Made by a program: the position numbers and the translations under genes. A stretch of 64,000 bases of DNA from Burkholderiales bacterium (lineage in GTDB: Bacteria; Pseudomonadota; Gammaproteobacteria; Burkholderiales; SG8-39): the NCBI GenBank assembly GCA_035519135.1, contig DATIWX010000135.1, positions 1,459 to 65,458 of the forward strand, in the 5' to 3' direction. Below are positions 11,047 to 54,686 of this stretch, in pieces; positions within the stretch are counted from its first letter, which is position 1; the number at the start of each line of letters is the position of its first letter. The notes below the pieces were generated by a model. The model was not told the origin of the DNA and searched no databases. It saw nothing but the letters and a program-made list of their open reading frames with translations.

Positions 11047-11535
11047 ATGGCGGACGCAACGAAACTTCAGCTGATGCGCGAGTCGGCGCTCGCGACGGAG
11101 CTCGATGCGAAGCAGTGCGCCGTGCTCGCTGATCTGGTCACGGTGCGCGACCTCGCCGACGGCGAGGTGCTGGTCGACGAGGGCGCGAGCGACGATCACG
11201 TGCACACCGTCGTGAGCGGAACGCTCGCGGTGGCGAAGCAGGTCCCGCCGGGAGGCCAGTGGATCAACCTGAACGTCCTCACCAAGGGCGACCTCGCCGG
11301 CGAGCTGGCTTTCATGGACGGCAAGCCGCACTACGCGGCTCTCCGCGCGGTCGGCCCGACCAGGATACTGAGCCTGAAGCGCGAAAGACTCGAATCGCTT
11401 CTCGGCAGCGAGCCGCTCATCGTCTATCGGGTGATGCGCGCCATCTTCCGCGTCGTGCACGGCATACTGCATCGCATGGCGCTGCAGGCGAGCGAGCTCA
11501 CCAATTACATCTACAAGCAGCACGGCAAATACTAG
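11047..11535 (+). CDS. cyclic nucleotide-binding domain protein with no DNA-binding domain
   Basis: 162 aa with a cNMP-binding signature (..GDLAGELAFMDGKPHYAALRAVG..). It is too short to carry a C-terminal HTH. Confidence 0.75.
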   Translation: MADATKLQLMRESALATELDAKQCAVLADLVTVRDLADGEVLVDEGASDDHVHTVVSGTLAVAKQVPPGGQWINLNVLTKGDLAGELAFMDGKPHYAALRAVGPTRILSLKRERLESLLGSEPLIVYRVMRAIFRVVHGILHRMALQASELTNYIYKQHGKY

Positions 11536-11553
11536 GGCCGGAGGTGATTGGGT

Positions 11554-13191
11554 ATGCTTCGGGGAACCGCCCTGAGTGGATTCCCCGCCGTGTCCCGTCC
11601 CAGCGAATCGGACCGCCTCCTCGCCGCCCTGCGCGAGCCTGCCTGCTACCCGCACGCGGCGGGGACGGTCGAGCTGATCGAGACCCATATCTCATGGGTG
11701 TTTCTCGCCGGCGAGTTCGCGTACAAGATCAAGAAGCCGGTGAACCTCGGATTCCTCGATTTCGGCACGCTCGAAAAGCGGCGTTTCTACTGCGAGGAGG
11801 AGCTGCGGCTCAACCGGCGCACGGCGCCGGGCCTCTACGTAGACGTCGTTCCCGTCGCCGAGAGCCGGGACGGGCTGCGCGTGGGCGGGACGGGGAAGGC
11901 GATCGAGTACGCGCTCAGGATGCGGCGTTTCCCGCAGGAAGCCCTCGCCGATGCCGTGGCCCGGCGCGGCGAGCTGCGCGCCGCCCAGGCCGAAGCGATC
12001 GCCGCCGCCATCGCCGCGTTTCACGCCGGCATTCCGGCGGCGGCCCAGGATTCCGGATACGGTTCTCCCGACCATGTCACCGCGCCGGCGCTGGCCAACT
12101 TCGAGCAGCTCGGCGGGCTGGTCGCCGATCCGGCCGAGAGCGCCAGGCTCGAGGAGCTGCGCGACTGGACCCGGAACGAAGGCGCGCGGCTGCGCGAAAC
12201 CTTCGCCGCGCGCAAGCGCGGCGGGTTCGTGCGCGAGTGCCACGGCGACCTGCATCTCGGCAACATCGCGTTTCTCGAGGGGCGGCCCGTGCCGTTCGAT
12301 TGCATCGAATTCGACCCGCGGCTCCGCTGGATCGACGTGATGAACGAAATCGCGTTCCTCGCGATGGATCTGCTCGAGCACGGGCTGAACGCGGCCGCCT
12401 GGCGGTTCCTGAACGCCTATCTCGAGACCACGGGGGACTACGCGGGCGTGCGGGTGCTGCGCTACTACCTCGTCTATCGCGCCACGGTGAGGGCGATGGT
12501 CGCCTGCATACGCCTGCATCAGCCGGGAGCCGGCGCGGCGGCGCAGGGCAGGGCGCACCGCGAGTACGGAGAGTATCTCGCGCTGGCGGGGTCGCTGGCC
12601 GGTTCTGCCCGGCGCGCGCTCATCGTGATGCACGGCCTGTCGGGTTCCGGCAAGACGACCGTGGCGCAGAGGATGTCGGAGAGCCTCGGCGCGGTGCGCG
12701 TGCGCTCCGATGTCGAGCGCAAGCGCCTGCACGGCCTGGCCGCCGGGGCGCGGACGCAGTCGCAGCCGTTCGGCGGGATCTACGCGCCCGAGGCCACGCG
12801 CCTGACCTACGCGAGGCTCGCGCAGGCGGCGCGCGACGTCGTCGAATCGCGATACGGCGTGATCGTCGATGCCGCTTTCCTGCGGCGCGCGGAGCGCGAG
12901 CAGTTCCGGGCGCTCGCCCGGGAGCTCGGAGCGCCGTTCCTGATCGCGTCGTGCCGGGCCGGCGAGGCGGCGCTGCGCGCCCGCGTCGCGCGCAGAGAGA
13001 CGGCGGCGAGCGATGCCTCCGAAGCCGGCGTGTCCGTGCTGGAGAATCAGCTCGCGACGCAGGAGCCGCTCGGCGCCGACGAGCTCGCGCACGCCGCGCT
13101 GATCGACACCGAGCGGGACGAAGCCGCCCTGGAGGAGGCGATCGCGGGAATCGCAGGCCGCCTCGAGACCGCAGGCGCGACTGATGGCTGA
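11554..13191 (+). CDS. bifunctional aminoglycoside-phosphotransferase-like / P-loop (AAA) kinase family protein
   Basis: The N-terminal part has ..ELIETHISWVFLAGEFAYKIKKPV.. The C-terminal part has the Walker A motif MHGLSGSGKTT. GGAGGTG lies 8 nt upstream of the ATG at 11554. Confidence 0.75.
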   Translation: MLRGTALSGFPAVSRPSESDRLLAALREPACYPHAAGTVELIETHISWVFLAGEFAYKIKKPVNLGFLDFGTLEKRRFYCEEELRLNRRTAPGLYVDVVPVAESRDGLRVGGTGKAIEYALRMRRFPQEALADAVARRGELRAAQAEAIAAAIAAFHAGIPAAAQDSGYGSPDHVTAPALANFEQLGGLVADPAESARLEELRDWTRNEGARLRETFAARKRGGFVRECHGDLHLGNIAFLEGRPVPFDCIEFDPRLRWIDVMNEIAFLAMDLLEHGLNAAAWRFLNAYLETTGDYAGVRVLRYYLVYRATVRAMVACIRLHQPGAGAAAQGRAHREYGEYLALAGSLAGSARRALIVMHGLSGSGKTTVAQRMSESLGAVRVRSDVERKRLHGLAAGARTQSQPFGGIYAPEATRLTYARLAQAARDVVESRYGVIVDAAFLRRAEREQFRALARELGAPFLIASCRAGEAALRARVARRETAASDASEAGVSVLENQLATQEPLGADELAHAALIDTERDEAALEEAIAGIAGRLETAGATDG

Positions 13192-32639: not shown

Positions 32640-32653
32640 TTGACCCATGTCAA
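32640..32653. promoter_or_regulatory. FNR/FixK-type box variant TTGACCCATGTCAA (symmetric, 2 mismatches) in the ald/polX divergent region
   Basis: Its centre is 41.5 bp from the ald ATG (32605) and 53.5 bp from the polX ATG (32700). Confidence 0.5.
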
Positions 32654-32699
32654 CCGACCGGTCGGCGAGTCGGCCATTATCCATATTGGAGGCTTGGCG

Positions 32700-34487
32700 A
32701 TGGGCAGACCGGCTGGCGAGGTTTCAGCAACGAAGGCGGGGGCGGTCCACAACGCCGATATCGCGCGCGCTTTCGAGGAGATCGCCGACCGGCTCGAGAT
32801 CGGCGACGCGAACCCGTTTCGCGTGCGGGCCTATCGCAACGCTGCCCGGGTGGTGGGCGAGCTGAAGCTCGATGTCGCGGCGAAGATCCGCGGTGGCGAG
32901 GCGCTGCCCAAGCTTCCGGGAATCGGCGAGGACCTGGCGGGCAAGCTCGGCGAGCTCGCGACGACCGGCCGTTGCGAGATGCTCGAGCGCCTGCGCAGGA
33001 AAATGCCGCCCGCGATCACCGAGCTGCTGCGCGTCCCGGGGCTGGGACCGAAGCGCGTCAGGGCGCTTTACCGCGAGCTCGGCGTGCAGACCCTGGAGCA
33101 GCTCCAGCGCGCGGCGCGCGACGGCCGGATCCGCGAGCTCCCGGGCTTCGGCGAGAAGTCCGAGCTGAACCTGCTGGAGTCGGTCGAGGCGCGGCTTTCG
33201 AAGGCGCGGCGCTTCAAGCTGGCCGTCGCGGCGCAGTACGCCGAGGCGCTCGCCGCGTACCTGCGCGAGTCCGCCGGTGTCGGCAAGGTCGTCGTGGCGG
33301 GCAGCCTGCGCCGCATGCGCGAGACGGTCGGCGACATCGACATTCTCGCGACGGCCGACGCCTTCAGCGATGTCATGGAGCGCTTCGTGCGCTACGGCGA
33401 GGTGAAGGACGTGCTGTCCCACGGCGAGACGCGATCGAGCGTGCTGCTCGCCTCGGGCATCCAGGCCGACCTGCGCGTCGTTCCGCGGGAGAGCTACGGC
33501 GCCGCGCTGCACTACCTGACCGGCTCGAAGGCACACAACATCGCCGTCAGGCAGCTCGCCCAGGCGCGCGGCATGAAGCTCAACGAGTACGGCGTCTTCC
33601 GGAGCGCGAAGCGCGTCGCCGGCGACACCGAGGAATCGGTGTTCGAAGCCGTGGGCCTGCCCTACATCGAGCCCGAGCTGCGCGAGGAGCACGGCGAGAT
33701 CGAGGCGGCGCGCTCAGGGCGCCTGCCCAAGCTGGTCGAGCTCGGCGACCTCCGGGGCGACCTGCACGCCCACAGCAAGTGGAGCGACGGCCGGAACACG
33801 ATCCGCGAGATGGCGCTCGCCGCGCGGGAGCACGGGCTTGCGTATCTCGCCATCACCGATCATTCGCGGCGGCTCGCCATGGCGCACGGGCTCGACCCGG
33901 AACGTCTGCGGCGGCAATGGAGCGAGATCGAGGCGACCGAGGTTCCGGGCATCACGCTGCTGAAGGGCATCGAGGTCGACGTGCTGGAGGACGGGACGCT
34001 CGATCTGCCCGACTCCGTGCTCGGCGGGCTGGACATCGTGATCGCGGCCGTGCACAGCAAGTTCAATCTCTCGCGCGAGCGCCAGACCGAGCGCATCCTG
34101 CGCGCCCTCGACCATCCGCTCGTCGCCCTGCTCGCGCACCCGCTGGGCCGGCTGATCGACGCGCGCGAGCCCTACGACGTGGACATGCTAAGGATCGTGC
34201 GCAAGGCCGCCGCACGCGGGCGCCACCTCGAATTGAACGCGCATCCGGAGCGCCTGGATCTCCTCGATACGCACTGCCGCATGGCGAAGGACGAGGGCGT
34301 GCTGGTCAGCATCAATTCCGACGCGCACAGCGCGCTCGAGTTCGACAACCTGAAATACGGCATCGGTCAGGCAAGGCGGGGATGGCTGGAGAGGAAGGAC
34401 GTGCTCAACGCGCTTTCGCTTGCCGAGCTGCGCCGGCTGCTGCCGGTCGCGCAGTCCGGCGGGCAGCGCGAGAAAGGGCCTGCCTGA
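32700..34487 (+). CDS. polX: family X DNA polymerase with a C-terminal PHP phosphoesterase domain (PolX)
   Basis: ..IARAFEEIADRLEIGDANPFRVRAYRNAA.., HhH motifs (LPGIGEDLA, VPGLGPKRV, LPGFGEKS), and a PHP domain (..DLHAHSKWSDG..). The start at 32700 is my choice among alternatives. Confidence 0.8.
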   Translation: MGRPAGEVSATKAGAVHNADIARAFEEIADRLEIGDANPFRVRAYRNAARVVGELKLDVAAKIRGGEALPKLPGIGEDLAGKLGELATTGRCEMLERLRRKMPPAITELLRVPGLGPKRVRALYRELGVQTLEQLQRAARDGRIRELPGFGEKSELNLLESVEARLSKARRFKLAVAAQYAEALAAYLRESAGVGKVVVAGSLRRMRETVGDIDILATADAFSDVMERFVRYGEVKDVLSHGETRSSVLLASGIQADLRVVPRESYGAALHYLTGSKAHNIAVRQLAQARGMKLNEYGVFRSAKRVAGDTEESVFEAVGLPYIEPELREEHGEIEAARSGRLPKLVELGDLRGDLHAHSKWSDGRNTIREMALAAREHGLAYLAITDHSRRLAMAHGLDPERLRRQWSEIEATEVPGITLLKGIEVDVLEDGTLDLPDSVLGGLDIVIAAVHSKFNLSRERQTERILRALDHPLVALLAHPLGRLIDAREPYDVDMLRIVRKAAARGRHLELNAHPERLDLLDTHCRMAKDEGVLVSINSDAHSALEFDNLKYGIGQARRGWLERKDVLNALSLAELRRLLPVAQSGGQREKGPA

Positions 34488-34900
34488 AAAGCTTTTCCTA
34501 TTTCGAGCACGACGCCGATATCGGTATCATCGGCAGGGGCGCGACGCTGGAGAGGGCGTTCGAGTCCGCCGCCGAAGCGATGTTCGCCGTCATGGCCGAT
34601 CCGCAATCGCTGCTGCGGGAATCGCAGGAGGTGTCGGTGTCCTTCACCGAGGACGATGTCGAGCTGGCGCTGGTCCAGTGGCTCAACGCCCTGCTCGGCG
34701 CGGCGAGGGAGCGGGGCGCGGTGTTCCGCCGCTTCGCGCTCGCGCGCGAAGGCCCGCGCTGGAGCGGCCGCGCCTGGGGCGAGCCCTGGCGCGAGAGTTC
34801 GGAGCGGGGCACGGAAGTGAAGGGCGCGACGCTCACCATGCTCTCAGTGAGGCAGGCGGACGGAGCGGGCTGGGAAGCCCGCTGCGTGATCGACGTCTAG
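34484..34900 (+). CDS. archease (RtcB activator)
   Basis: The conserved N-terminus ..FSYFEHDADIGIIGRGATLERAFESAAEAMF.. is present. The only nearby start candidates are a CTG at 34484 overlapping the polX stop (CTGA) and an in-frame ATG at 34382. Confidence 0.7.
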   Translation: MKSFSYFEHDADIGIIGRGATLERAFESAAEAMFAVMADPQSLLRESQEVSVSFTEDDVELALVQWLNALLGAARERGAVFRRFALAREGPRWSGRAWGEPWRESSERGTEVKGATLTMLSVRQADGAGWEARCVIDV

Positions 34901-34909
34901 GGGAAGCGA

Positions 34910-36343
34910 ATGGATCTCGAGCGACTGGAGCAGACCGGCCCCTGGGCCTGGCGCGTGAAGCGCGACCCGGGCGCCGAGCGCGCCGAGGCGGTTCTCTACG
35001 GCGACGCCGAGCTGCTGCGCACCATGGACGACAAGGTGCTCGAGCAGATCACCAACGTCGCCCGCCTTCCCGGCCTCGTCGGCCCGGCGCTCGCCATGCC
35101 CGACGCTCACTGGGGCTACGGCTTTCCGATCGGCGGCGTGGCGGCGTTCGATCCCGAGCGAGGCGGCATCATCTCCGCGGGCGGCGTGGGCTTCGACATC
35201 TCCTGCGGCATACGCTGCCTGCGAACGAGCCTCGCGGCGGAGGAAGTCGCGCCGCTGGCGTCTAGGCTCGCCGACAGCCTGTATCGCGACATTCCCGCCG
35301 GGGTCGGAGTCGAAGGCAGCCTGCAGCTCTCGATCGGAGAGCTGGATTCCGTCCTCAAGGACGGCGCACGCTGGGCGGTGCGCCACGGCTACGGCGAGGA
35401 AGCGGAGCTCGAATACGTGGAGGAGCGCGGCCGCGTCGAGGGCGCGAAGCCGCAGAACGTTTCGCAGCTGGCGAAGAAGCGCCAGCGCGGGGAGATGGGC
35501 ACGCTCGGCTCGGGCAACCACTACCTCGAGGTGCAGGTCGTCGAGCGCATCCACGACGCGGCGGCGGCGGAAGCCTACGGGCTCCGCACCGGGCAGGTCG
35601 TCGTTTCGATCCACTGCGGATCGCGCGGCCTCGGTCACCAGATCGGCACCGATTTCCTCGTCAGCCTCGCCAAGGCGGCCGGCCGGCTCGGGATCGCGCT
35701 CCCGGACCGCGAGCTCGCCTGCGCGCCGGTCCGCTCGCCCGAGGGCGAGCAGTACATCGGCGCCATGAACGCGGCGATCAACTGCGCGCTTGCGAACCGC
35801 CAGATCCTCGCGCATCTCGCGCGGCGGACTCTCGCGCATTTCTTCCCGGACGTGCGCGTCGAAACGCTGTTCGACGTCTCGCACAACACCTGCAAGCCGG
35901 AGCGCCACGAGGCGAACGGCAGGGAGCGCCTGCTGTGGGTGCACCGCAAGGGCGCGACGCGGGCGTTCGCGCCGGGCCATCCCGACATCCCGAAGCGCTA
36001 CCGCGAGGCCGGCCAGCCGGTGATCATCGGCGGCAGCATGGGCACCGGCTCGTACGTGCTCGCCGGCGTGGGCTCGAGCGAGGCGCGCGCCTGGAGCTCT
36101 GCGAGCCACGGCGCGGGACGCGCCATGAGCCGGCACCAGGCGCTCAGGCAATGGCAGGGCCGGCAGCTGGTCGATTCGCTGCGCGAGCGCGGTATCCTGA
36201 TCCGCACGCGCTCGATGCGCGGCGTCGCCGAGGAAGCCCCGGGCGCCTACAAGGACGTGGACCGCGTCGCCGAGGCGACCGAAGGCGCGGGGCTCGCGCG
36301 CCGCGTCGCCTTCCTGCGGCCGGTGGTCTGCGTGAAAGGCTGA
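34910..36343 (+). CDS. rtcB: RNA-splicing ligase RtcB
   Basis: 477 aa with ..AMPDAHWGYGFPIGGVAAF.., ..GSGNHYLEVQ.., ..HCGSRGLGHQI.., ..HRKGATRA.. Confidence 0.92.
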   Translation: MDLERLEQTGPWAWRVKRDPGAERAEAVLYGDAELLRTMDDKVLEQITNVARLPGLVGPALAMPDAHWGYGFPIGGVAAFDPERGGIISAGGVGFDISCGIRCLRTSLAAEEVAPLASRLADSLYRDIPAGVGVEGSLQLSIGELDSVLKDGARWAVRHGYGEEAELEYVEERGRVEGAKPQNVSQLAKKRQRGEMGTLGSGNHYLEVQVVERIHDAAAAEAYGLRTGQVVVSIHCGSRGLGHQIGTDFLVSLAKAAGRLGIALPDRELACAPVRSPEGEQYIGAMNAAINCALANRQILAHLARRTLAHFFPDVRVETLFDVSHNTCKPERHEANGRERLLWVHRKGATRAFAPGHPDIPKRYREAGQPVIIGGSMGTGSYVLAGVGSSEARAWSSASHGAGRAMSRHQALRQWQGRQLVDSLRERGILIRTRSMRGVAEEAPGAYKDVDRVAEATEGAGLARRVAFLRPVVCVKG

Positions 36344-46697: not shown

Positions 46698-49523
46698 TCA
46701 CGATCCCGCCGCCAGATCCGGTTCTCCGCAGTGCGCCAGGATTTCCGCGCGCGCGAGGTTCCTGAGGGCGACCGCCGCGCTCCACGCCTGTCCTTGCGGC
46801 CGCAGCAGCGGGCCCGCGAGGATCTGGATCACGCCCCGCCGCGGGAGCCAGTCTCCGTCCCTCAGGACCGAGCGCGTTCCGCGGACCGCGACCGGCAACA
46901 CCGGTATGCCGGCGGCGGCAGCGGCGACGAATGCGCCCAGGTGGAACGGCAGCAGGCCCGGCGCGCGCGTGAACGTGCCTTCGGGGAAGAACACCAGCGA
47001 TTCGCCGCGCTCCGCGAGGTGCGACAGCTCGCGGGAATCGCGCACGCTGCGCTCGGTGTCGCCGCGCTCGACGAAGCGGACACCGTAGGCGCGGAGCAGC
47101 CAGCCGACGACGGGGTATTCGGCCAGCTCGCGCTTGGCCACGAAACAGAGACCGTCGGGCAAAGTCGCGAACAGCAGAAAAGCATCGAAATAACTCGAAT
47201 GGTTGGCGACGACCATGAGCGGCTCTCCGGGAAAGTTCTCGAGCCCGCGCACCAGGACGGGCAGTCCCGAGACACGCAGAAGCGCGCGGAGGAGAAGGCG
47301 AACGGCGCGCCGGCGCCGGGCGCTGCCCGGCAGCAGCAGGGCGGGGAAGGTGCCGAGCGCAAAAGCGGAGAACAGCGCCCAGAGCCAGGCGGCGTAGAGC
47401 CTTTCGGCGGCGGTGCGCCCGGCGCGCCGCAGACGCGCGCGCACCATGCTCCAGAGGAAACCGGCCCGCTGCCGCCATGCTTCGAGCCGCCCGGCGCTGA
47501 CCAGGCCGCGCTCGTAGGCGTCCCGGCTCGCGGCGCGCCGTATCTTGCCGCTCGAGGTCTTCAACACCGTGTGCGGCGGGGCGAGCACGATGTCGTCCGC
47601 AGGCGCGCCGAGAAGCTTCAGCGCGAGCTCGGCGAGCGCCTCGCGCAGTCTCTCCAGCCGCTCGCGGTCGGTGAACCGGGTCTCGGCGAGCACCACGACC
47701 TTTTCGGTCCCCAAGACCGGGTCGGCGACGCCGAACACGGCGACGCAGCCCTTGCGGATGCCCTCGAGATTTCCCGCGGCCGCCTCGAGCTCGTAGGGAT
47801 GCACGTGCTGACCGCCGCGGATGATGAGGTCCTTGGCGCGGCTGGTCGGAAAGATCTCGCCGCCGGCGATGTAGCCCAGGTCTCCCGTATCGAGCCAGTC
47901 GCCGTCGAACAGGGACCGCGTCGCTTCGGCATTGCGGAAATAGCCGGCGGTCGCGGACGGGCCGCGAAACTCGATGCGCCCCTCGCGGCGCTCGGGCAGC
48001 TCGCGCCCGTTCCCGTCGACGACGCGGATCGGGTGCCGCGGCAGAGGCACTCCGCAAGCGGCGAAGGGCAGGGCGTCGGCGTCGTCGGCACGCGCGGATG
48101 AGGCGACGCCCTCGAGCATGAGCGGGCGCCGCTCGACGCGATCGACGAGCGGCCCGCGCCCGAGCGGCGGAAAGGCGAGGCCGACCGCGCACTCTGCGAG
48201 CCCGTACACCGGTGCGAGCGCGGAAGGCGCGAAGCCGTGCGCCGCGAAGCGCCCGGCGAAGCGCGCCAGGGTATCGGGACTCACCGGTTCCGCGCCGTTG
48301 AATGCGATGCGGAGGGAGCTCAGGTCGAGGCCTGCGAGATCGCGTTCGTCCACGCGCGCGGCGCACAGCTCGTACGCGAAGTTGGGCGCCGACGTGAGCG
48401 TGCCGCGATAGCGGTGAATCGCCCACAGCCAGCGCGAAGGCCTCGTCAGGAACGACGCCGGCGGCATGACGACCAGCGGAAACGCGAAATACAGGCTTCC
48501 GAGCCATGCGCCGATGAGGCCCATGTCGTGGTAGAGCGGCAGCCAGCTCACGAACACGTCGTGCGAATCGGCGGCGACGGCTTGCCCCATCGCGCGGATA
48601 TTGGCGAGCAGATTCGCGTGGCTCAGCATCACGCCCTTCGGATTGCCGGTGCTCCCGGAGGTATATTGCAGCAGGGCGAGATCCTCGCTGCGCCGCGGTC
48701 GCGGCCCCGGGGCCTCGGGCCTGGCGAGCTGCGATACGGTCACGCAGCTTCGCAATGTGGGAACCTGGTCGCGCAACAAGGCGGCAAAGCGCTCCGCCTC
48801 CGGAAACGTGACCAGCAGCTTCGCCAGGCAGTTGTTCAATATGCCGGATTGGCGGCGCAGATGCTCCGCGATGTCCGACGCGCGCGCCGGAGGATAGATG
48901 GGCACGGGCACGGCCCCGGCGATCACAACGGCGAAGAACACGCCGAAAAACTCGCGGCAGGTCGGAAGCATGATGGCGACGGTGTCACCCGCCCCGACGC
49001 CGAGATCGGCGAATCCCGCCGCAAGGCGTCCAGCCTCGCCGCGAAGCTCGGCGTAGCTCATCGGCTCGCCGCGCTCGCCCTCGGCGAGCAGCACGACGTG
49101 CACGCGCGCGGGATGCGCAGCGACGTGCCAGTCGAGGACGTCGAGGAGCGTCGCGGCCTCATCGGGGAGCTCTTCGCTTCCGAGCGCGGCCTGCACGATC
49201 GGCGTCGCGGCCTGCGCGCCCGGCTCCGATGCGCGCGCGCCTCCTGCCCGCACCGCCCGGAGCAGGTCGCGCGGCGTTTCCGCCGTGCCGAGCAGATGCT
49301 CCGGCAGCCGCAGGTCGAAGGCGCGCTCGATGCGCATGATCAGTTCCACGCGGGCGAGGCTGTCGATGCCGAGGTCGCGCTCGAGCGAGCTGTCCAGGCG
49401 CACCGCCCTCGCGCGCCCGCCCTGTTCCGATTCCCGGAGGAGCTCGGCGATGACGGCAAGCAGTGTCGCGGAGAGCGCCTCGTTCGCCGGCTCGGTGCGC
49501 GGGCGGTCGCTTACTTCGGGCAT
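46698..49523 (-). CDS. tri-domain fusion: acyl carrier (PP-binding), AMP-dependent acyl ligase, and PlsC-type acyltransferase
   Basis: 941 aa. The N-terminus has ..LGIDSLARVELIMRIE.. The core has ..LQYTSGSTGNPKGVMLSHANL.. The C-terminus has ..VANHSSYFD.. and ..FPEGTFT.. Confidence 0.8.
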   Translation of the reverse strand: MPEVSDRPRTEPANEALSATLLAVIAELLRESEQGGRARAVRLDSSLERDLGIDSLARVELIMRIERAFDLRLPEHLLGTAETPRDLLRAVRAGGARASEPGAQAATPIVQAALGSEELPDEAATLLDVLDWHVAAHPARVHVVLLAEGERGEPMSYAELRGEAGRLAAGFADLGVGAGDTVAIMLPTCREFFGVFFAVVIAGAVPVPIYPPARASDIAEHLRRQSGILNNCLAKLLVTFPEAERFAALLRDQVPTLRSCVTVSQLARPEAPGPRPRRSEDLALLQYTSGSTGNPKGVMLSHANLLANIRAMGQAVAADSHDVFVSWLPLYHDMGLIGAWLGSLYFAFPLVVMPPASFLTRPSRWLWAIHRYRGTLTSAPNFAYELCAARVDERDLAGLDLSSLRIAFNGAEPVSPDTLARFAGRFAAHGFAPSALAPVYGLAECAVGLAFPPLGRGPLVDRVERRPLMLEGVASSARADDADALPFAACGVPLPRHPIRVVDGNGRELPERREGRIEFRGPSATAGYFRNAEATRSLFDGDWLDTGDLGYIAGGEIFPTSRAKDLIIRGGQHVHPYELEAAAGNLEGIRKGCVAVFGVADPVLGTEKVVVLAETRFTDRERLERLREALAELALKLLGAPADDIVLAPPHTVLKTSSGKIRRAASRDAYERGLVSAGRLEAWRQRAGFLWSMVRARLRRAGRTAAERLYAAWLWALFSAFALGTFPALLLPGSARRRRAVRLLLRALLRVSGLPVLVRGLENFPGEPLMVVANHSSYFDAFLLFATLPDGLCFVAKRELAEYPVVGWLLRAYGVRFVERGDTERSVRDSRELSHLAERGESLVFFPEGTFTRAPGLLPFHLGAFVAAAAAGIPVLPVAVRGTRSVLRDGDWLPRRGVIQILAGPLLRPQGQAWSAAVALRNLARAEILAHCGEPDLAAGS

Positions 49524-49612: not shown

Positions 49613-49626
49613 TTGATCCAAATCAA
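49613..49626. promoter_or_regulatory. FNR/FixK-type box TTGATCCAAATCAA (perfect) in a divergent region
   Basis: Its centre is 96.5 bp from the ATG at 49523 (minus strand) and 36.5 bp from the ATG at 49656 (plus strand). Confidence 0.6.
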
Positions 49627-49655
49627 GAATCGGGGCGCCGTCCGCGCGTTGATGC

Positions 49656-50189
49656 ATGTCAACACGGATGGCGCAGCCGGCTGTCAAAGTGTGGGCGATG
49701 GATTCCGGGTCGAAAATTCGGATCAACCGGTTCAGCTTCGGGGGTACCGCCGGCATCGTCGCCTGCGTGGCTCTCGTCGTCGGTCTCGGTGCGGCGGGCG
49801 CGCCGAAGTCGGTGATCGTCAGCAGCCTCCTGATCGTCGCGCTGGCCGACAATCTCACCGACTCCCTGAGCATCCATATCTATCAGGAGTCCGAGCGCCT
49901 CCCGGGGAAAGAGGCGTTTCTCGCGACCACCTCGAACTTCGTGTCGAGGCTGCTGGTGTCGTTGAGCTTCGTTCTACTCGTGCTGGCGCTGTCGATCCGC
50001 GTCGCGGTCGTGGCGGCGCTCGCCTGGGGACTGTTCCTCCTGGGTCTGCTCAGCTGGATGATCGCCCGGCAGCGCGGCGTGCAGCCGGTTCCCGAAGTGG
50101 CCAAGCATCTGTTCGTGGCCCTGGTCGTGGTGGCCGTCGCCGAGCTCATCGGCGACTGGATCCCCACCCTGCTCCCGGCCGGTCCCTGA
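49656..50189 (+). CDS. small VIT1/CCC1-like membrane protein (tentative)
   Basis: 177 aa with ..FSFGGTAGIV.. and ..LIVALADNLTDSLSIHIYQESE.., followed by TM helices. The start is uncertain (in-frame ATGs at 49656, 49668 and 49698). Confidence 0.5.
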   Translation: MSTRMAQPAVKVWAMDSGSKIRINRFSFGGTAGIVACVALVVGLGAAGAPKSVIVSSLLIVALADNLTDSLSIHIYQESERLPGKEAFLATTSNFVSRLLVSLSFVLLVLALSIRVAVVAALAWGLFLLGLLSWMIARQRGVQPVPEVAKHLFVALVVVAVAELIGDWIPTLLPAGP

Positions 50190-50221
50190 GGCTCCCGCGT
50201 TCACCTGCCGGCGCTGCCCGA

Positions 50222-51235
50222 ATGCGTCCGATGCTCATGCCGCAGCTCGTAAACCCGGCGTTCGGCGACCCGGGCCTGTACGTGGATTTCCGCAACGAGA
50301 AGCGCGCGCTGCTCTTCGACATCGGCGACATCGGCATGCTCGCGCCGCGCAAGCTGCTGCGTCTCTCGCATGTGTTCGTCTCGCACACGCACATGGATCA
50401 TTTCATGGGCTTCGACGCGCTGCTGCGCGTGAGCCTGGGGCGCGATGTCGCGGTGCGCCTGTTCGGCCCGCCGGGATTCGTCGACCAGGTCGCGCACAAG
50501 CTCGCCGCCTACACCTGGAACCTCGCCGAATCCTACCCGGGCGATTTTTCGGTGCTCGGGTCGGAACTGCACGCGGACGGCAGGCTCATTTCGGCGCTGT
50601 TCCGCTGCCGGCGCCGCTTCGAGCGCGAAACGCTCGAGGAGGCGCATGTCGAGGACGGCATCCTGGTCGACGAACCCGGGTTCCGGGTTCGCACCGCGTT
50701 TCTCGAGCATCGAACCCCCTGCCTCGCCTTCGCCGTCGAAGAGAAGGCGCACGTCAACATCTGGAAGAATCGCCTCGACGAGATGGGCCTTCCGGTCGGA
50801 CCCTGGATCCGGGACCTCAAGGAAGCGGTGCTCGAAGGTGCGCCCGACGACGCGCCGGTCCGGGCCTCGTGGAAAGAGAAGGGCGAGCGGACGGAACGCG
50901 TTCTTGCCCTCGGTGAACTGAAGGCGCGGGCGCTGCAAGTCGTTCCGGGGGAGAAGCTGTGCTATGTGACCGACGCCGCGTTCAGCGTGCAGAACGCGCA
51001 GCGCATCGTCTCCCTGGCGAAAGACGCCGATCTGCTTTTCATCGAGTCGGTCTTCCTCCAGGAGGATGTCGATCAGGCGCAACGGAAGTGCCACCTGACG
51101 GCGCGCCAGGCGGGAGAGATCGCGCGCGCCGCCGGCGCGCGCGCCGTCGAGCCTTTCCACTTCTCCCCGCGCTACGCGGGGCGCGAAGGCGAGCTGCGTG
51201 CCGAGCTGGAGCTCGCGTTTCGCGGCTCGAGCTAG
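50222..51235 (+). CDS. metallo-beta-lactamase-fold hydrolase, RNase Z/ElaC-like
   Basis: ..VFVSHTHMDHFMGFD.. is the HxHxDH motif. The C-terminal part has ..HLTARQAGEIA.. Confidence 0.7.
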   Translation: MRPMLMPQLVNPAFGDPGLYVDFRNEKRALLFDIGDIGMLAPRKLLRLSHVFVSHTHMDHFMGFDALLRVSLGRDVAVRLFGPPGFVDQVAHKLAAYTWNLAESYPGDFSVLGSELHADGRLISALFRCRRRFERETLEEAHVEDGILVDEPGFRVRTAFLEHRTPCLAFAVEEKAHVNIWKNRLDEMGLPVGPWIRDLKEAVLEGAPDDAPVRASWKEKGERTERVLALGELKARALQVVPGEKLCYVTDAAFSVQNAQRIVSLAKDADLLFIESVFLQEDVDQAQRKCHLTARQAGEIARAAGARAVEPFHFSPRYAGREGELRAELELAFRGSS

Positions 51236-51501
51236 CCGGTCGAAGGCGGCGGCCCGCGGCGCCAGATCAGCTCGCCGTCCCGCCACACCTCGCGCACGCG
51301 ATGCAAGGGCACTGTGTGCAACGTGCCGTCGTCTTCCACCGCGTCGAAGGAGAAGTGCTCGCCAGAAGCAAAGTGGATGCGGCGGAACGGCACCTTGACG
51401 ATCCTCTTCGCGACATGGTCGTCGTAACCGACTGCAAACTCGGATTTCGAGAACTCCGGGTCCCAGCGGATGCGGTTGAGCAGGTCCTGGATGGGGATCA
51501 C
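51232..51501 (-). CDS. DUF504-family protein (found with RNA repair genes)
   Basis: 89 aa: ..LLNRIRWDPEF..VGYDDHV..VPLHRVREVWRDGELIWRR. ATGA overlap with the rtcA stop. Confidence 0.6.
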   Translation of the reverse strand: MIPIQDLLNRIRWDPEFSKSEFAVGYDDHVAKRIVKVPFRRIHFASGEHFSFDAVEDDGTLHTVPLHRVREVWRDGELIWRRGPPPSTG

Positions 51502-52529
51502 GGCGCGGCGAGGACGATCCGGGACAGCGCACCGGCCTGGGAGACTTCGAAGCGCACCGGCAGGAACTTCTCGATGAGCCAGATGCAGGTGCGGGCGTGC
51601 AAGCTCACGGCGCGCGTTGTCAGCGCACCACCCCGGGCGAGGGCGAAGTAGACCAGCAGCTGGTCGGCGGCGTGCAGGTCGACCGCGGCCCCCGCGGCGA
51701 GATCCGCGGCGAGCTCCGTCCCGGCCGCCTCGCCGAGCGCCTCGGCCCCTACGCCGCGCTCAGCGGTCCGTCCGGCACCGAGGACCGTGCTCTCGGCATG
51801 CGCCCAGGCGACGATCGCGCCGCCCGGGCCGATCGCCTCATCCGGGCCGAGCACGCGGCATGCGATGTCCGGCGTCACGCCTCGCAGCGATGCAAGCCGG
51901 TCGAGGGCGGAGGCGCGCATGCGCATGGCGATGTGCTCGGGCAGGTTCGCGACGTGCGCAAGCCCCGACAGGCTCCGCAATGCGCCGGGCGCGTCGAACG
52001 CGGCGGGCCGGAGCGCGGAAGGCGATACGGAGACCCGCACTTCCCCGCCGCCGTGCGGATAGTAGCCGCGTCTCCGGACCTCGAGCCGGACTCGCGCACC
52101 CATCCGCGAGAGGAGCTCCAGCAGGACCTCGCGAAAGTAGTCGAGCGGCGGCGCCATGCGCACGTCGGTTCCGCCGATGATGTCCGCGTCGCACGGCTTG
52201 CCGCTCGCGATCATCACCGGAAGCAAGGCTTGCAGGAGCAGTGTCACACTCCCGGCCGTGCCTACGTCGAAACGAAAACTGCCACCCTCCAGCGCGCGCG
52301 GCCTGAGGGTGAAGAACTGCGACCGAAGCTGCACGCCTTCGACGCTAGCGCCCGCGAGCGCGGCGACCGCCCGCACCGCCGCGACGTGCTGCGGGGCAAG
52401 CCCGGGCTTGTCCCGATTGGCGCGGACGTTGCGGACGGCGACCGGGCGACCGGTGATCGCCGAGAGCGCCGCGGCGGTGCGCACGACCTGGCCGCCGCCC
52501 TCTCCATAGGATCCGTCGAGTTCGAGCAC
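51498..52529 (-). CDS. rtcA: RNA 3'-terminal phosphate cyclase
   Basis: 343 aa: MLELDGSYGEGGGQVVRTAAALSAITGRPV..NRDKPGLAPQH.. Confidence 0.9.
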   Translation of the reverse strand: MLELDGSYGEGGGQVVRTAAALSAITGRPVAVRNVRANRDKPGLAPQHVAAVRAVAALAGASVEGVQLRSQFFTLRPRALEGGSFRFDVGTAGSVTLLLQALLPVMIASGKPCDADIIGGTDVRMAPPLDYFREVLLELLSRMGARVRLEVRRRGYYPHGGGEVRVSVSPSALRPAAFDAPGALRSLSGLAHVANLPEHIAMRMRASALDRLASLRGVTPDIACRVLGPDEAIGPGGAIVAWAHAESTVLGAGRTAERGVGAEALGEAAGTELAADLAAGAAVDLHAADQLLVYFALARGGALTTRAVSLHARTCIWLIEKFLPVRFEVSQAGALSRIVLAAP

Positions 52530-52554
52530 GCCTCTACGGCCGGCCCGCCAATCC

Positions 52555-52947
52555 TCAAAGCGTGGGTTTGCCGGGCTGGAGAAACTTCTTTTCGTAAGCG
52601 CTCTGGCAGGCGATACAGCGTTTCGCTGTCGGCTCGCTGCGCAACCGCGCCAGCCCGATCTCGCCGCCGCAATCGATGCACGTCCCGTAGCGGCCCTCGC
52701 TTATGCGGGCCAGGGCCGAGTCGATCTCGCGCAGCTCCTGCAGATCGCGGGAAAGCTCGGCGTTCTCGACGTCCGAGATGAGATCGGCGGTGGCTTCGTC
52801 ACCCGTATCCGCGACGGGCCCCGTCGACTGCGAGTAGACATCCTCGCGTGCCTTCGCCGCATCGGCGTGCGCTTCCACCTCGAGAAATTCGCGGCGCTTC
52901 GTCAGCGCCCCCTTGAGTTCCTGCAGTTGTTCGGGCTTCAGTGGCAT
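52555..52947 (-). CDS. DksA/TraR-family C4 zinc-finger protein
   Basis: 130 aa with a coiled-coil N-terminus and ..CIDCGGEI..RCIACQ.. Confidence 0.8.
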   Translation of the reverse strand: MPLKPEQLQELKGALTKRREFLEVEAHADAAKAREDVYSQSTGPVADTGDEATADLISDVENAELSRDLQELREIDSALARISEGRYGTCIDCGGEIGLARLRSEPTAKRCIACQSAYEKKFLQPGKPTL

Positions 52948-52973
52948 GGTGGTTCTCCGTGTCGGTGCTTCGT

Positions 52974-53537
52974 TCAGTCCGGTGCGTAGTCGAGCGGCCA
53001 GCGCTTCGAGAGGAAGCGGACGATGTGCGCGTCCGCGCCGGGCGAGCCATAGGTCCATACGGGCCCGTCCATGACGAGCTTGCCCAGCTTGCAAGGGCGG
53101 ATGTTCAGGGCGAGGACCGGCAGCTTGCGCTGCCGCAGTTCCGCCGCCTGCTCCTCGTATCCGGACTCGCCTTCGAAGAAAAGCCATTCTCGCACGAAGG
53201 CATCCTGCATCCGCTCCAGCTCGTGGCACAGGTCGATGGAGACCGGGACCGGCCGGTCGATCGGCGCTTCGCCCTTGGTGGAGGCCATGAGCCAGTTTCC
53301 GTAGACGTCGTCCTCGACCGACCGGTAGCAGACGGTCTCGCGGGTGGAGTAGTAATGCTCCAGCATGAAGAAACGGGCCGGATGCTCGTGTGCCCTCGCC
53401 CCCGTGAACCAGCCGTACACATGGTCCTCTCTGACGAACCAGAAGAGGGCACACACAAGCCCCGCACCGCGCAGTGCGTAGGCGACGTGAACATGGGGCT
53501 CGATCATGATTTCTCGACTGATTCCGGCAATCTCCAT
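52974..53537 (-). CDS. hypothetical protein, first gene of the apparent rtcA operon
   Basis: 187-aa ORF with normal-looking composition. I recognised no motif. Confidence 0.5.
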   Translation of the reverse strand: MEIAGISREIMIEPHVHVAYALRGAGLVCALFWFVREDHVYGWFTGARAHEHPARFFMLEHYYSTRETVCYRSVEDDVYGNWLMASTKGEAPIDRPVPVSIDLCHELERMQDAFVREWLFFEGESGYEEQAAELRQRKLPVLALNIRPCKLGKLVMDGPVWTYGSPGADAHIVRFLSKRWPLDYAPD

Positions 53538-53567
53538 TTGACTCTAGCCTCTCGACCGACTAATTCC

Positions 53568-53581
53568 TTGCGCTAGATCAA
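53568..53581. promoter_or_regulatory. degenerate FNR-type box TTGCGCTAGATCAA in a divergent region
   Basis: The right half-site is perfect and the left half matches 3/5. Its centre is 37.5 bp from the ATG at 53537 and 67.5 bp from the ATG at 53642. Confidence 0.35.
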
Positions 53582-53641: not shown

Positions 53642-54184
53642 ATGCAAGTCCCATTGGAGATTACGGTAAGGGGTATGCCGCACTCGCCCGCCCTCGAGGC
53701 GCGCATCCGCGAGAAGGCGGCAAGATTGGAGGAGTTCGATTCGCGCATCATCCGCTGCCACGTCATGGTGGAAGAGTCCGGCAAGCACCAGCATCAGGGG
53801 CATCGGTTTACCGTGCGCATCGACGTGCGCGTTCCCGGGCGCGAGATCGCGGTAACCCACGAACACCACGAGGACGTCTTCGTCGCGCTGCGGGACGCGT
53901 TTGACGCCGCCAAGCGACAGCTGGAGGACGTGGTCCGCGAGAAGCGCGGCGACGTCAAGGTCCACGTGGTCCCGCAGCACGGGCGCGTCGCGCGGCTCAG
54001 TTTCGACGAGGGCTTCGGTTTCATCGAGACCTCAGACGGACGGGAACTCTATTTCAGCCGTGAAAACGTCGTGTACCCGGCGTTCGAACGCTTGGAACCC
54101 GACATGCCGGTGCAGTTCATCGAGGAGGTTGCCGGTGAAGGTCCTCAGGCAAAGCGGGTGAGCGCCGGCAAGCACGCCGTTTAG
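53642..54184 (+). CDS. HPF/RaiA-type ribosome hibernation factor fused to a C-terminal cold-shock domain
   Basis: The N-terminus is MQVPLEITVRGMPHSPALEARIREKAARLEEF..FVALRDAFDAAKRQL. The C-terminus is ..GRVARLSFDEGFGFIETSDGRELYFS.. Confidence 0.8.
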   Translation: MQVPLEITVRGMPHSPALEARIREKAARLEEFDSRIIRCHVMVEESGKHQHQGHRFTVRIDVRVPGREIAVTHEHHEDVFVALRDAFDAAKRQLEDVVREKRGDVKVHVVPQHGRVARLSFDEGFGFIETSDGRELYFSRENVVYPAFERLEPDMPVQFIEEVAGEGPQAKRVSAGKHAV

Positions 54185-54204: not shown

Positions 54205-54378
54205 ATGACCGAGGAGAAGAAGCCTTCCAAACGCGAAATACCGCAGCCCGAAATCCAGGAAGGGCACAGCCGCGGCAAAGCGCGCGATGACAAGCTGAAG
54301 CGCATCATCAAGCGTCACCCCACGCGCGACGAGCCCCGTGTCGACGACGTGGACGAGATGGACTTGCCGCCCTCCTAG
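54205..54378 (+). CDS. 57-aa highly charged small protein (not in the supplied ORF track)
   Basis: AGGAGG lies 6 nt upstream of the ATG at 54205. My translation is MTEEKKPSKREIPQPEIQEGHSRGKARDDKLKRIIKRHPTRDEPRVDDVDEMDLPPS*. Confidence 0.45.
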   Translation: MTEEKKPSKREIPQPEIQEGHSRGKARDDKLKRIIKRHPTRDEPRVDDVDEMDLPPS

Positions 54379-54686
54379 AGGTCTTTCACACGCGGGCCGG
54401 GTGGGCGGTCACTTCGACTCCCGGATTCGGGAGCCGGGCCGTTCTCGGTTTTCGCGACAGCCGGACCCGCGCGAGTGAACGCGCCGAGCGTCCATTCGCC
54501 TTTCACCTCATCCCGGCGAAGAATATAGACGTGCCCGTCGTCGCCCCTGATCCTGAAATAGCGATGGTCAGGAGCCATCCAGCGGTCCAGGATCTCGAGC
54601 GCCGCAATGCGGCGCTCTCCAAGCCAGAAGGCCCGCGGCTCCTGCTCGCCGCGGTACCCGGCATAGCACTCGACCCGGATTTCCAT
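54375..54686 (-). CDS. hypothetical protein
   Basis: 103-aa ORF lying 8 nt downstream of the CBS gene on the same strand. The composition looks coding. Confidence 0.5.
   Translation of the reverse strand: MEIRVECYAGYRGEQEPRAFWLGERRIAALEILDRWMAPDHRYFRIRGDDGHVYILRRDEVKGEWTLGAFTRAGPAVAKTENGPAPESGSRSDRPPGPRVKDL

Follow-up and report, generated by a model that had tools for sequence, protein, structure and literature searches.

The segment at about 49.6-53.6 kb of a 64,000-nucleotide stretch of DNA from a Burkholderiales bacterium (GenBank assembly GCA_035519135.1, contig DATIWX010000135.1, positions 1,459 to 65,458 of the forward strand; hereafter the window) raises the question of why a gene for the RNA 3'-terminal phosphate cyclase RtcA should be accompanied by genes for an MJ1316 domain protein, a metallo-beta-lactamase (MBL) hydrolase resembling RNase Z, a DksA-like zinc-finger protein and an orphan protein (p177), in a region punctuated by boxes of the FNR/Anr type. 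Based on protein families, structure models and the gene neighborhoods of related loci, RtcA, MJ1316 and the RNase Z-like enzyme are best described as a recurrent, non-obligatory module of one proteobacterial RtcA clade. We further propose, giving the idea an even chance of being correct, that this locus serves the upkeep of RNA and ribosomes within an FNR/Anr-type island for low-oxygen stasis, in an uncultured soil betaproteobacterium of Burkholderiales-like affinity; cyclic phosphate ends of RNA would there stand at a branch point between two fates. The initial annotation, made from the sequence alone, had described this segment as an RNA-end-processing locus, and that observation is confirmed here with small corrections.

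The RtcA-MJ1316-RNase Z gene cluster and its products

The window has a G+C content of 66-72%, and its gene map was drawn from a codon-position scan and the list of open reading frames (ORFs), with families assigned from Pfam and NCBIfam. The six genes at the center of the question are the following:

49668/49698-50189, plus strand, small multi-pass membrane protein
50222-51235, plus strand, RNase Z-type MBL hydrolase of 337 amino acids (aa), NF002558/PRK02126 subfamily
51232-51501, minus strand, MJ1316 (DUF504/UPF0248) domain protein, 89 aa, GTG start, PF04457
51498-52529, minus strand, RNA 3'-terminal phosphate cyclase RtcA, 343 aa, TIGR03399
52555-52947, minus strand, DksA/TraR-family C4 zinc-finger protein, 130 aa, PF01258
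52974-53507, minus strand, orphan protein p177, 177 aa (the mechanical ORF runs to 53537 and gives 187 aa)

The initial assignments of RtcA and the DUF504 protein are borne out by the family models. RtcA scores 378 bits on TIGR03399 against an equivalog cutoff of 250 and additionally matches PF01137 and the RTC_insert domain, and its His311 aligns with His307 of P. horikoshii RtcA (4o89), which we take to be the adenylylated residue. The MJ1316 protein matches PF04457 with 86.2 bits against 26.3, spanning profile positions 1-75 of 75; it has no plasmid homologue and no sequence relative in the PDB, and literature searches on UPF0248/DUF504 returned only irrelevant papers. RtcA is described as making 2',3'-cyclic phosphate from 3'-phosphate ends and, more slowly, from 2'-phosphate ends (PMC3854526), and in the literature, as in its Pfam name, the MJ1316 domain figures as a predicted reader of RNA 2',3'-cyclic ends found in RNA-repair contexts.

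The genes are tightly packed. The convergent 4-nt overlap noticed initially is exact, both stops lying within the palindrome CTAG at 51232-51235 (the MBL TAG at 51233-51235, the MJ1316 TAG as the complement of 51232-51234), and the junction has no significant RNA fold (z = -1.2). The rtcA stop and the MJ1316 start also overlap, this coupling reading GTGA rather than the ATGA first given. There is no Rfam family or tRNA gene in the window, and 49.4-54.4 kb contains neither a sigma70 consensus promoter nor a convincing terminator. Identical proteins occur in the same gene order on the ENA soil-metagenome contig ERZ27256607, which was also the only contig returned by a look-up with the DksA-like protein, and the closest named relatives are Betaproteobacteria or Burkholderiales metagenome-assembled genomes.

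The MBL protein is supported as an RNase Z-type enzyme by several features of its sequence and predicted structure. It scores 463 bits on the "ribonuclease Z" subfamily model NF002558 (cutoff 315), and its HxHxDH motif, already recognized in the initial annotation as resembling that of RNase Z/ElaC, reads HTHMDH. The later His and Asp ligands of the metal site are present as well: H163, D251, H291 and H313 do not vary among 31 family members and have counterparts in the alignment with human ELAC1 and B. subtilis RNase Z. The flexible-arm GP motif (LPVGPW) is retained, with LDEMGLPVGPWIRDLK aligning with LKDLGVPPGPAYGKLK of ELAC1 and LKEMNIPPGPVYQKIK of B. subtilis, and G189, G193 and W195 of this arm are invariant in the same 31 members. 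Its sequence relatives in the PDB are human ELAC1, the best (E 3e-14), B. subtilis RNase Z and E. coli RNase Z/ZiPD, and the AlphaFold2 (AF2) model (pLDDT 89) best matches the B. subtilis RNase Z-tRNA complexes (E 6e-19, TM 0.68-0.75), followed by ZiPD, ELAC1, ELAC2 and rice RNase ZS1, with B. subtilis YhfI also among the structural neighbors. The initial annotation had envisaged that an alignment with non-nuclease MBL subfamilies would make its place beside rtcA a coincidence; the top relatives are RNase Z and ELAC1. The protein nevertheless passes only the broader NF002558 and falls below the true RNase Z equivalog TIGR02651 (116 bits against a cutoff of 293). The NCBIfam model for a cyclic-nucleotide-degrading phosphodiesterase gives a weak match of 41 bits against a cutoff of 400, and PF23023, annotated on some homologues, was not reproduced at an E-value of 1 or better. 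Plasmid homologues are 45-49% identical, and none of them adjoins rtcA.

RNase Z and other MBL nucleases hydrolyze RNA to 3'-hydroxyl and 5'-phosphate ends, and for this reason the MBL protein is unlikely to be a source of 2',3'-cyclic phosphate ends. Thus, of the initial suggestion that the locus covers both generation and sealing of cyclic ends, the presence of the RtcA and RtcB families stands, but a nuclease as the generator is improbable. By analogy with ELAC1, removal of a 2',3'-cyclic phosphate would fit this protein better than the formation of one.

Recurrence of the gene neighborhood

We then examined related loci (designated here by L numbers), of which a metagenome scan with RtcA gave 25, supplemented by contig look-ups with MJ1316, MBL and p177 homologues and by tblastn mapping. 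MJ1316 was counted in the 18 distinct loci in which RtcA is at least 58% identical to that of the window and the downstream side is visible: it follows rtcA intact in 14 of the 18, is cut by a contig end in one, truncated by a deletion in another and absent from two, one of these being a deletion. The RNase Z-like gene is convergent with MJ1316, with the same 4-nt overlap of stops, in seven loci (the window, L044, L019-L021, L023 and L032); in L044, whose RtcA is 81% identical, the convergent trio is kept without the DksA-like gene or p177. RtcA, MJ1316 and the MBL gene all point the same way in L047/L048, L051 and L052, at an RtcA identity of only 58-60%, and L051 and L052 were found starting from MBL homologues, independently of rtcA. 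The trio is thus convergent in the clade of the window and co-directional in three other lineages.

The link of the MBL gene to rtcA-MJ1316 is therefore not coincidental, the three genes adjoining in at least four arrangements or lineages. The flanks in L051 and L052 are housekeeping genes (RNase PH, cytochrome oxidase) and not those of the stasis island described below. In both loci a Prim-Pol/PriCT_1 gene lies immediately upstream of the trio (L051 5594-6400; L052 1576-2385), and the window contains no homologue of it. Judged by these neighborhoods, the conserved functional core is RtcA plus MJ1316 plus the RNase Z-like enzyme. Full-text searching of the literature gave no paper that combines RtcA with ribonuclease Z.

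Several relatives of the window carry deletion remnants. Of the MBL gene, L022 and L028 retain just the final ~30 codons; L024 keeps the first 28 codons of MJ1316 and neither the MBL nor the membrane-protein gene; and L038 lacks the RtcA C-terminus together with MJ1316.

FNR/Anr-type boxes and promoter geometry

A class II FNR/Anr promoter has its TTGAT-N4-ATCAA box centered ~41.5 bp upstream of the transcription start and ~31-32 bp from the center of the -10 element. With at most one mismatch, this box occurs at 12 sites in the window against 0.36 expected (33-fold), a number reached by none of 100 shuffles; allowing two mismatches raises the count to 25, where 6.2 would be expected. The elements that bear on the locus are:

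46698-49523, minus strand, fatty-acyl-AMP ligase (FAAL)/acyltransferase fusion, divergent from the membrane-protein gene and belonging to a FAAL-PGA_cap operon
49613..49626, no strand assigned, perfect FNR/Anr-type box TTGATCCAAATCAA
49649..49662, no strand assigned, FNR-type box TTGATGCATGTCAA, 1 mismatch
53541..53546, minus strand, -10-like hexamer TAGAGT of the p177 operon
53568..53581, no strand assigned, half-degenerate FNR-type box TTGCGCTAGATCAA, 2 mismatches, between p177 and HPF-CSD
53642-54184, plus strand, fusion of a ribosome hibernation factor (S30AE/HPF) with a cold-shock domain (HPF-CSD), divergent from the p177 operon

Two boxes, 36 bp apart and both kept in L019 and L032, share the divergent promoter region of the FAAL and membrane-protein genes. 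The center of box 49613 is 31 bp from a minus-strand -10-like hexamer, CAACAT, which faces the FAAL gene, while the center of box 49649 is 32 bp from a conserved plus-strand CAAAGT and predicts a transcription start at ~49697, beside the ATG at 49698. By this geometry box 49613 is probably the class II site of the divergent minus-strand FAAL-PGA_cap operon, and box 49649 is probably better placed to drive the membrane-protein/MBL unit, which suggests one box per direction; it also suggests that the membrane-protein mRNA begins at ATG 49698 with no leader or a very short one. Box 49613 itself was read correctly in the initial annotation, but the membrane-protein/MBL unit that it precedes is more probably served by box 49649.

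The degenerate box initially noted at 53568 is likewise present and is kept in six orthologous loci. In these p177/HPF-CSD intergenic regions, all from metagenomes, TTGATCTAGCGCAA is almost invariant and TAGAGT is invariant, the center of the hexamer being 31 bp from that of the box. The predicted transcription start, ~53534, lies downstream of the ATG at 53537 and ~27 nt upstream of the ATG at 53507. A box of the form TTGATC-N-AGCGCAA also precedes p177 in L006, an unrelated context, and a 1-mismatch box lies upstream of a pair of LonC-like and p177 genes in a cultured Burkholderia (L002).

The companion rtcB locus and the low-oxygen island

The rtcB and archease genes reported initially from elsewhere in the window are indeed present, downstream of a PolX gene:

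32694-36343, plus strand, PolX (PHP; Pol beta-like domain), archease and RtcB, with an FNR-type box at 32640
34580-36343, plus strand, the archease and RtcB part of this locus (RtcB: PF01139, 558 bits)

The center of box 32640 is 31 bp from CATTAT, and the box-to-hexamer spacing is thus 31-32 bp at all four of 49613, 49649, 53568 and 32640. Because the rtcA and rtcB loci both have FNR-type boxes with equal spacing to a -10-like hexamer, it is reasonable to suppose that they are under common control by an FNR/Anr-type regulator. Related loci have FNR-type boxes too: one precedes DksA-like-RtcA-MJ1316 in L025, others RtcA-MJ1316-MBL in L047/L048. In L025 archease-RtcB lies divergently upstream of DksA-like-RtcA-MJ1316 with the box between them, and in L047 archease-RtcB is less than 5 kb from RtcA-MJ1316-MBL.

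The wider setting is an island whose gene order is heavily shuffled between genomes. The window and related loci carry genes for fixGH, universal stress proteins (USPs), CBS, Hsp20/Hsp70, FtsH, Lon, nitroreductase and PGA_cap proteins, and also for alanine dehydrogenase, hemerythrin, class II ribonucleotide reductase, phosphoribosyltransferases and CRP/FNR-family regulators. In the window a tandem USP gene follows RtcB, extending to 37227 on the plus strand, and 11074-13191 (plus strand) encodes a 153-aa protein with only a cNMP-binding domain and, after it, an APH/AAA_33 kinase-like protein of 533 aa, which has a homologue beside a DksA-like-PolX operon in L047.

Accessory genes of the locus

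The DksA/TraR zinc-finger protein named in the initial annotation matches PF01258 and has its coiled-coil tip and four cysteines intact: the DxxDxA tip reads DTGDEA, and D47, D50, C90, C93, C111 and C114 are invariant in eight orthologues. It aligns with the DksA structures 2kq9, 6ptg and 1tjl. Because its scores fall below the equivalog cutoffs for DksA (NF033459, 71 bits against 105; TIGR02420, 64.5 against 115.5), we classify it from its sequence as a DksA/TraR-family paralogue and not as DksA proper, the factor of the RNA polymerase secondary channel.

The 187-aa protein of the initial annotation is most likely a 177-aa protein starting at 53507, since its homologues, which align from the second Met, are mostly 175-180 aa long and transcription is predicted to start downstream of the ATG at 53537. 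Its family comprises 174 clusters at 50% identity among 1.84 billion proteins, always stand-alone, of ~177 aa and without informative fusions. The AF2 model is confident (pLDDT 93.6), and p177 has no match in Pfam, NCBIfam, PADLOC, PDB sequence-profile, PDB fold or BFVD fold searches; the model may represent a new fold. In the cultured Burkholderia the p177 gene overlaps the end of the LonC-like AAA_32 gene.

Within the close clade, 10 loci, L025 (RtcA 74% identical) among them, have the DksA-like gene immediately upstream of rtcA. Only the closest clade has p177 in front of the DksA-like gene; elsewhere p177 stands beside HPF-CSD, a LonC-like ATPase or rtcA directly; the HPF-CSD fusion adjoins it also in L005, L006, L021, L027, L031 and L033. 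Neither gene is found upstream of rtcA in L044, L047, L051 or L052, and L047 has a DksA-like gene of 40% identity at the start of a PolX-PGA_cap operon instead. The initial grouping of these two genes with rtcA as a set is accordingly not upheld, and from their distribution we regard them as lineage-specific additions from the same island and not as core partners of rtcA.

A further gene, on the other side of HPF-CSD, travels with the gene set of the locus:

54375-54686, minus strand, small conserved protein, core of ~75 aa

Its core, VECYAGYRGE.EPRAF.LGERR...DRW, is strongly conserved, and neither Pfam nor the PDB gave a match. In L051 (7751-7978) and L052 (4580-4831) a homologue separates MJ1316 from the RNase Z-like gene, and in L044 (19179-19484) and L045 (10707-10964) one adjoins HPF, as in the window.

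The membrane protein upstream of the MBL gene is 173 aa long as called on the ENA contig and would be 163 aa from the start at 49698, which is favored by conservation and promoter geometry. Its gene is present in L019 and L032 and absent from L023 and L044. The description "VIT-like" is not supported, as Pfam gives no significant match, VIT1 (PF01988) reaching only E = 0.2 and 11.9 bits against 28.1 with the C-terminal part of the profile.

A proposed pathway and its alternatives

From the protein identities, the MBL fold, the boxes and the recurring neighborhood we infer a regulator, co-transcription within each unit, a set of substrates and an order of reactions. Two convergent units would be transcribed from class II FNR-type promoters, p177-dksA-like-rtcA-MJ1316 from box 53568 and membrane protein-MBL from box 49649. 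During anoxic stasis RNA, probably tRNA, would be nicked or trimmed to leave 3'-phosphate or 2'-phosphate ends, which RtcA would convert to 2',3'-cyclic phosphates, and these in turn would be recognized by the MJ1316 protein. Along one branch the cyclic ends would be sealed by the co-regulated archease-RtcB ligase; along the other the RNase Z-like enzyme would open or trim them to 3'-hydroxyl ends, as ELAC1/tRNase ZS does, for re-addition of CCA or re-use. The lineage-specific DksA paralogue would probably tune RNA polymerase during stasis, and p177 would be an orphan-fold accessory protein of the same regulon.

A bolder version, which we advance only tentatively, is that RtcA, MJ1316 and this RNase Z clade constitute a self-contained 3'-end healing pathway, in which the cyclic ends recognized by MJ1316 would be turned into 3'-hydroxyl ends by an ELAC1-like cyclic phosphatase or trimmer; switched on by an oxygen-sensing FNR/Anr regulator, it would keep tRNA and rRNA usable through anoxic dormancy, with the DksA paralogue and the new-fold protein p177 as stasis accessories. 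Were it correct, RtcA would gain a defined physiological role independent of RtcB. More generally, the RtcA-MJ1316-RNase Z neighborhood offers a testable hypothesis on the purpose of RNA 3'-phosphate cyclization and on the role of DUF504/MJ1316.

Several observations weigh against the proposed pathway. With more than 7,800 matches the MBL family is a large one, and its genes often stand alone, as in Accumulibacter (L049/50), Eleftheria and Methylocella, and the MBL protein may simply be the general RNase Z of the organism. Its gene is deleted in L022, L024 and L028, relatives that keep rtcA-MJ1316 (with MJ1316 truncated in L024); MJ1316 occurs without rtcA in L045; and the nine distant rtcA loci (at most 50% identity) of the genome-contig scan with RtcA have no MJ1316, DksA-like or MBL neighbors. 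The binding of cyclic ends by MJ1316 is a prediction and not a measured property. As regards regulation, the 2-mismatch box 53568 is not significant alone, ~6 such sites being expected by chance, and no regulator gene lies in the window.

Some of these observations speak for a looser association, in which the genes share a regulon and act in separate pathways: RtcA-MJ1316 would serve RtcB alone, the MBL protein would be an ordinary RNase Z/BN that matures tRNA 3' ends or takes part in RNA decay, and the DksA-like protein and p177 would be independent of both. The heavy shuffling of the island, the frequent stand-alone occurrence of the MBL family and the loss of the MBL gene from relatives retaining rtcA-MJ1316 are in keeping with such an arrangement. 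However, it does not readily account for RtcA, MJ1316 and the MBL gene adjoining despite changed orientation and other flanks where RtcA is only 58-60% identical, nor for the L051 and L052 flanks, which are not island genes among which the trio might be thrown together; we consider it possible, if on the doubtful side. The Prim-Pol/PriCT_1 gene preceding the trio in those same two loci points in another direction, namely to conflict-type RNA repair in the sense of Burroughs and Aravind, which would counter RNase toxins or phage damage to tRNA and not hypoxic stasis; the literature that ties the MJ1316 domain to RNA-repair contexts also agrees with this. Yet none of the six locus proteins has a match in PADLOC, the window shows no toxin, ligase or phage gene next to the locus, and the locus is framed by FNR-type boxes and stasis genes (HPF, USP, CBS, FtsH, Hsp70), so that a role in conflict appears unlikely.

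The remaining alternative concerns the MBL protein alone, which could be a small-molecule phosphodiesterase of the ZiPD type, acting on cyclic nucleotides or other phosphodiesters and not on RNA. The presence of E. coli ZiPD and B. subtilis YhfI among its structural neighbors is compatible with such an activity, as is the NCBIfam phosphodiesterase match, for all its weakness. Against this, the top folds are tRNA-bound RNase Z structures and the tRNA-binding GP arm is retained with its invariant residues, and we judge the possibility slight.

Comparison with known systems

The nearest familiar system is E. coli rtcBA, which has the same two enzyme families, RtcA and RtcB, and the same presumed purpose of dealing with 3'-phosphate and cyclic-phosphate RNA ends. 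There the two genes are adjacent and accompanied by a divergent gene for the sigma54 activator RtcR, whereas in the window rtcA and rtcB are ~15 kb apart in separate operons, rtcB paired with archease and PolX, and rtcA with MJ1316, the DksA paralogue, p177 and the RNase Z-like gene. The ORFs of the window that were scanned contain no RtcR/sigma54-activator domain, and regulation appears instead to be by FNR-type boxes, unlike that of rtcBA by RtcR. The initial statement that this is not the canonical rtcBA-rtcR system therefore stands.

For the second branch of the model, the closest parallel is eukaryotic tRNA recycling by ELAC1/tRNase ZS and rice TMS5, which remove 2',3'-cyclic phosphate from CCA-less tRNA, after which the CCA-adding enzyme restores the end. 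The window MBL protein is a short-form homologue, and the end on which ELAC1 acts is both the product of RtcA and the predicted ligand of MJ1316. The ELAC1 pathway is, however, triggered by ANKZF1/Vms1 cleavage in ribosome quality control, without RtcA, whereas the corresponding activity in the window would follow from homology; and the window protein, unlike ELAC1/tRNase ZS, belongs to the separate subfamily NF002558, below the cutoff of the true RNase Z equivalog.

With respect to setting, the island resembles the B. cenocepacia lxa locus and the M. tuberculosis DosR dormancy regulon, both large sets of stasis genes induced by low oxygen, in its USPs, Hsp20, CBS proteins, nitroreductase, FtsH-type protease, PGA_cap-like protein, ribonucleotide reductase and HPF-like factor. 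In lxa an Anr/FNR-like TGA-N6-TCA motif occurs at 17 intergenic sites and a "metal-dependent RNase" is induced 30-fold; lxa BCAM0300 and the window MBL protein are likened here by description only. The DosR regulon includes an HPF-like factor, a PGA_cap-like protein, Rv2630 and the RtcB homologue Rv2631, and because of the latter an RNA ligase gene in a hypoxia regulon has a precedent; the DosR regulator and box differ from those of the island. No rtcA, MJ1316, DksA paralogue or p177 is reported for lxa or DosR in the published accounts compared. If one oxygen-responsive box governs RNA-end repair together with a ribosome hibernation factor and a DksA paralogue, such dormancy regulons would widen from metabolism and proteostasis to RNA maintenance, and the locus flags the p177 family and the small conserved protein as candidate new members of the low-oxygen regulon.

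Finally, Burroughs and Aravind reportedly predicted, in 2016, conflict-type RNA-repair gene neighborhoods containing the MJ1316 domain. The occurrence of MJ1316 in RNA-repair contexts is shared with those neighborhoods, as may be the Prim-Pol gene beside the trio in L051 and L052; the setting of FNR-type boxes in a stasis island and the additions of the DksA-like protein and p177 are established here. On balance, we view the locus as a moderately novel variant of RNA-end repair and low-oxygen stasis regulons, joined by a mechanism that we infer from its parts.

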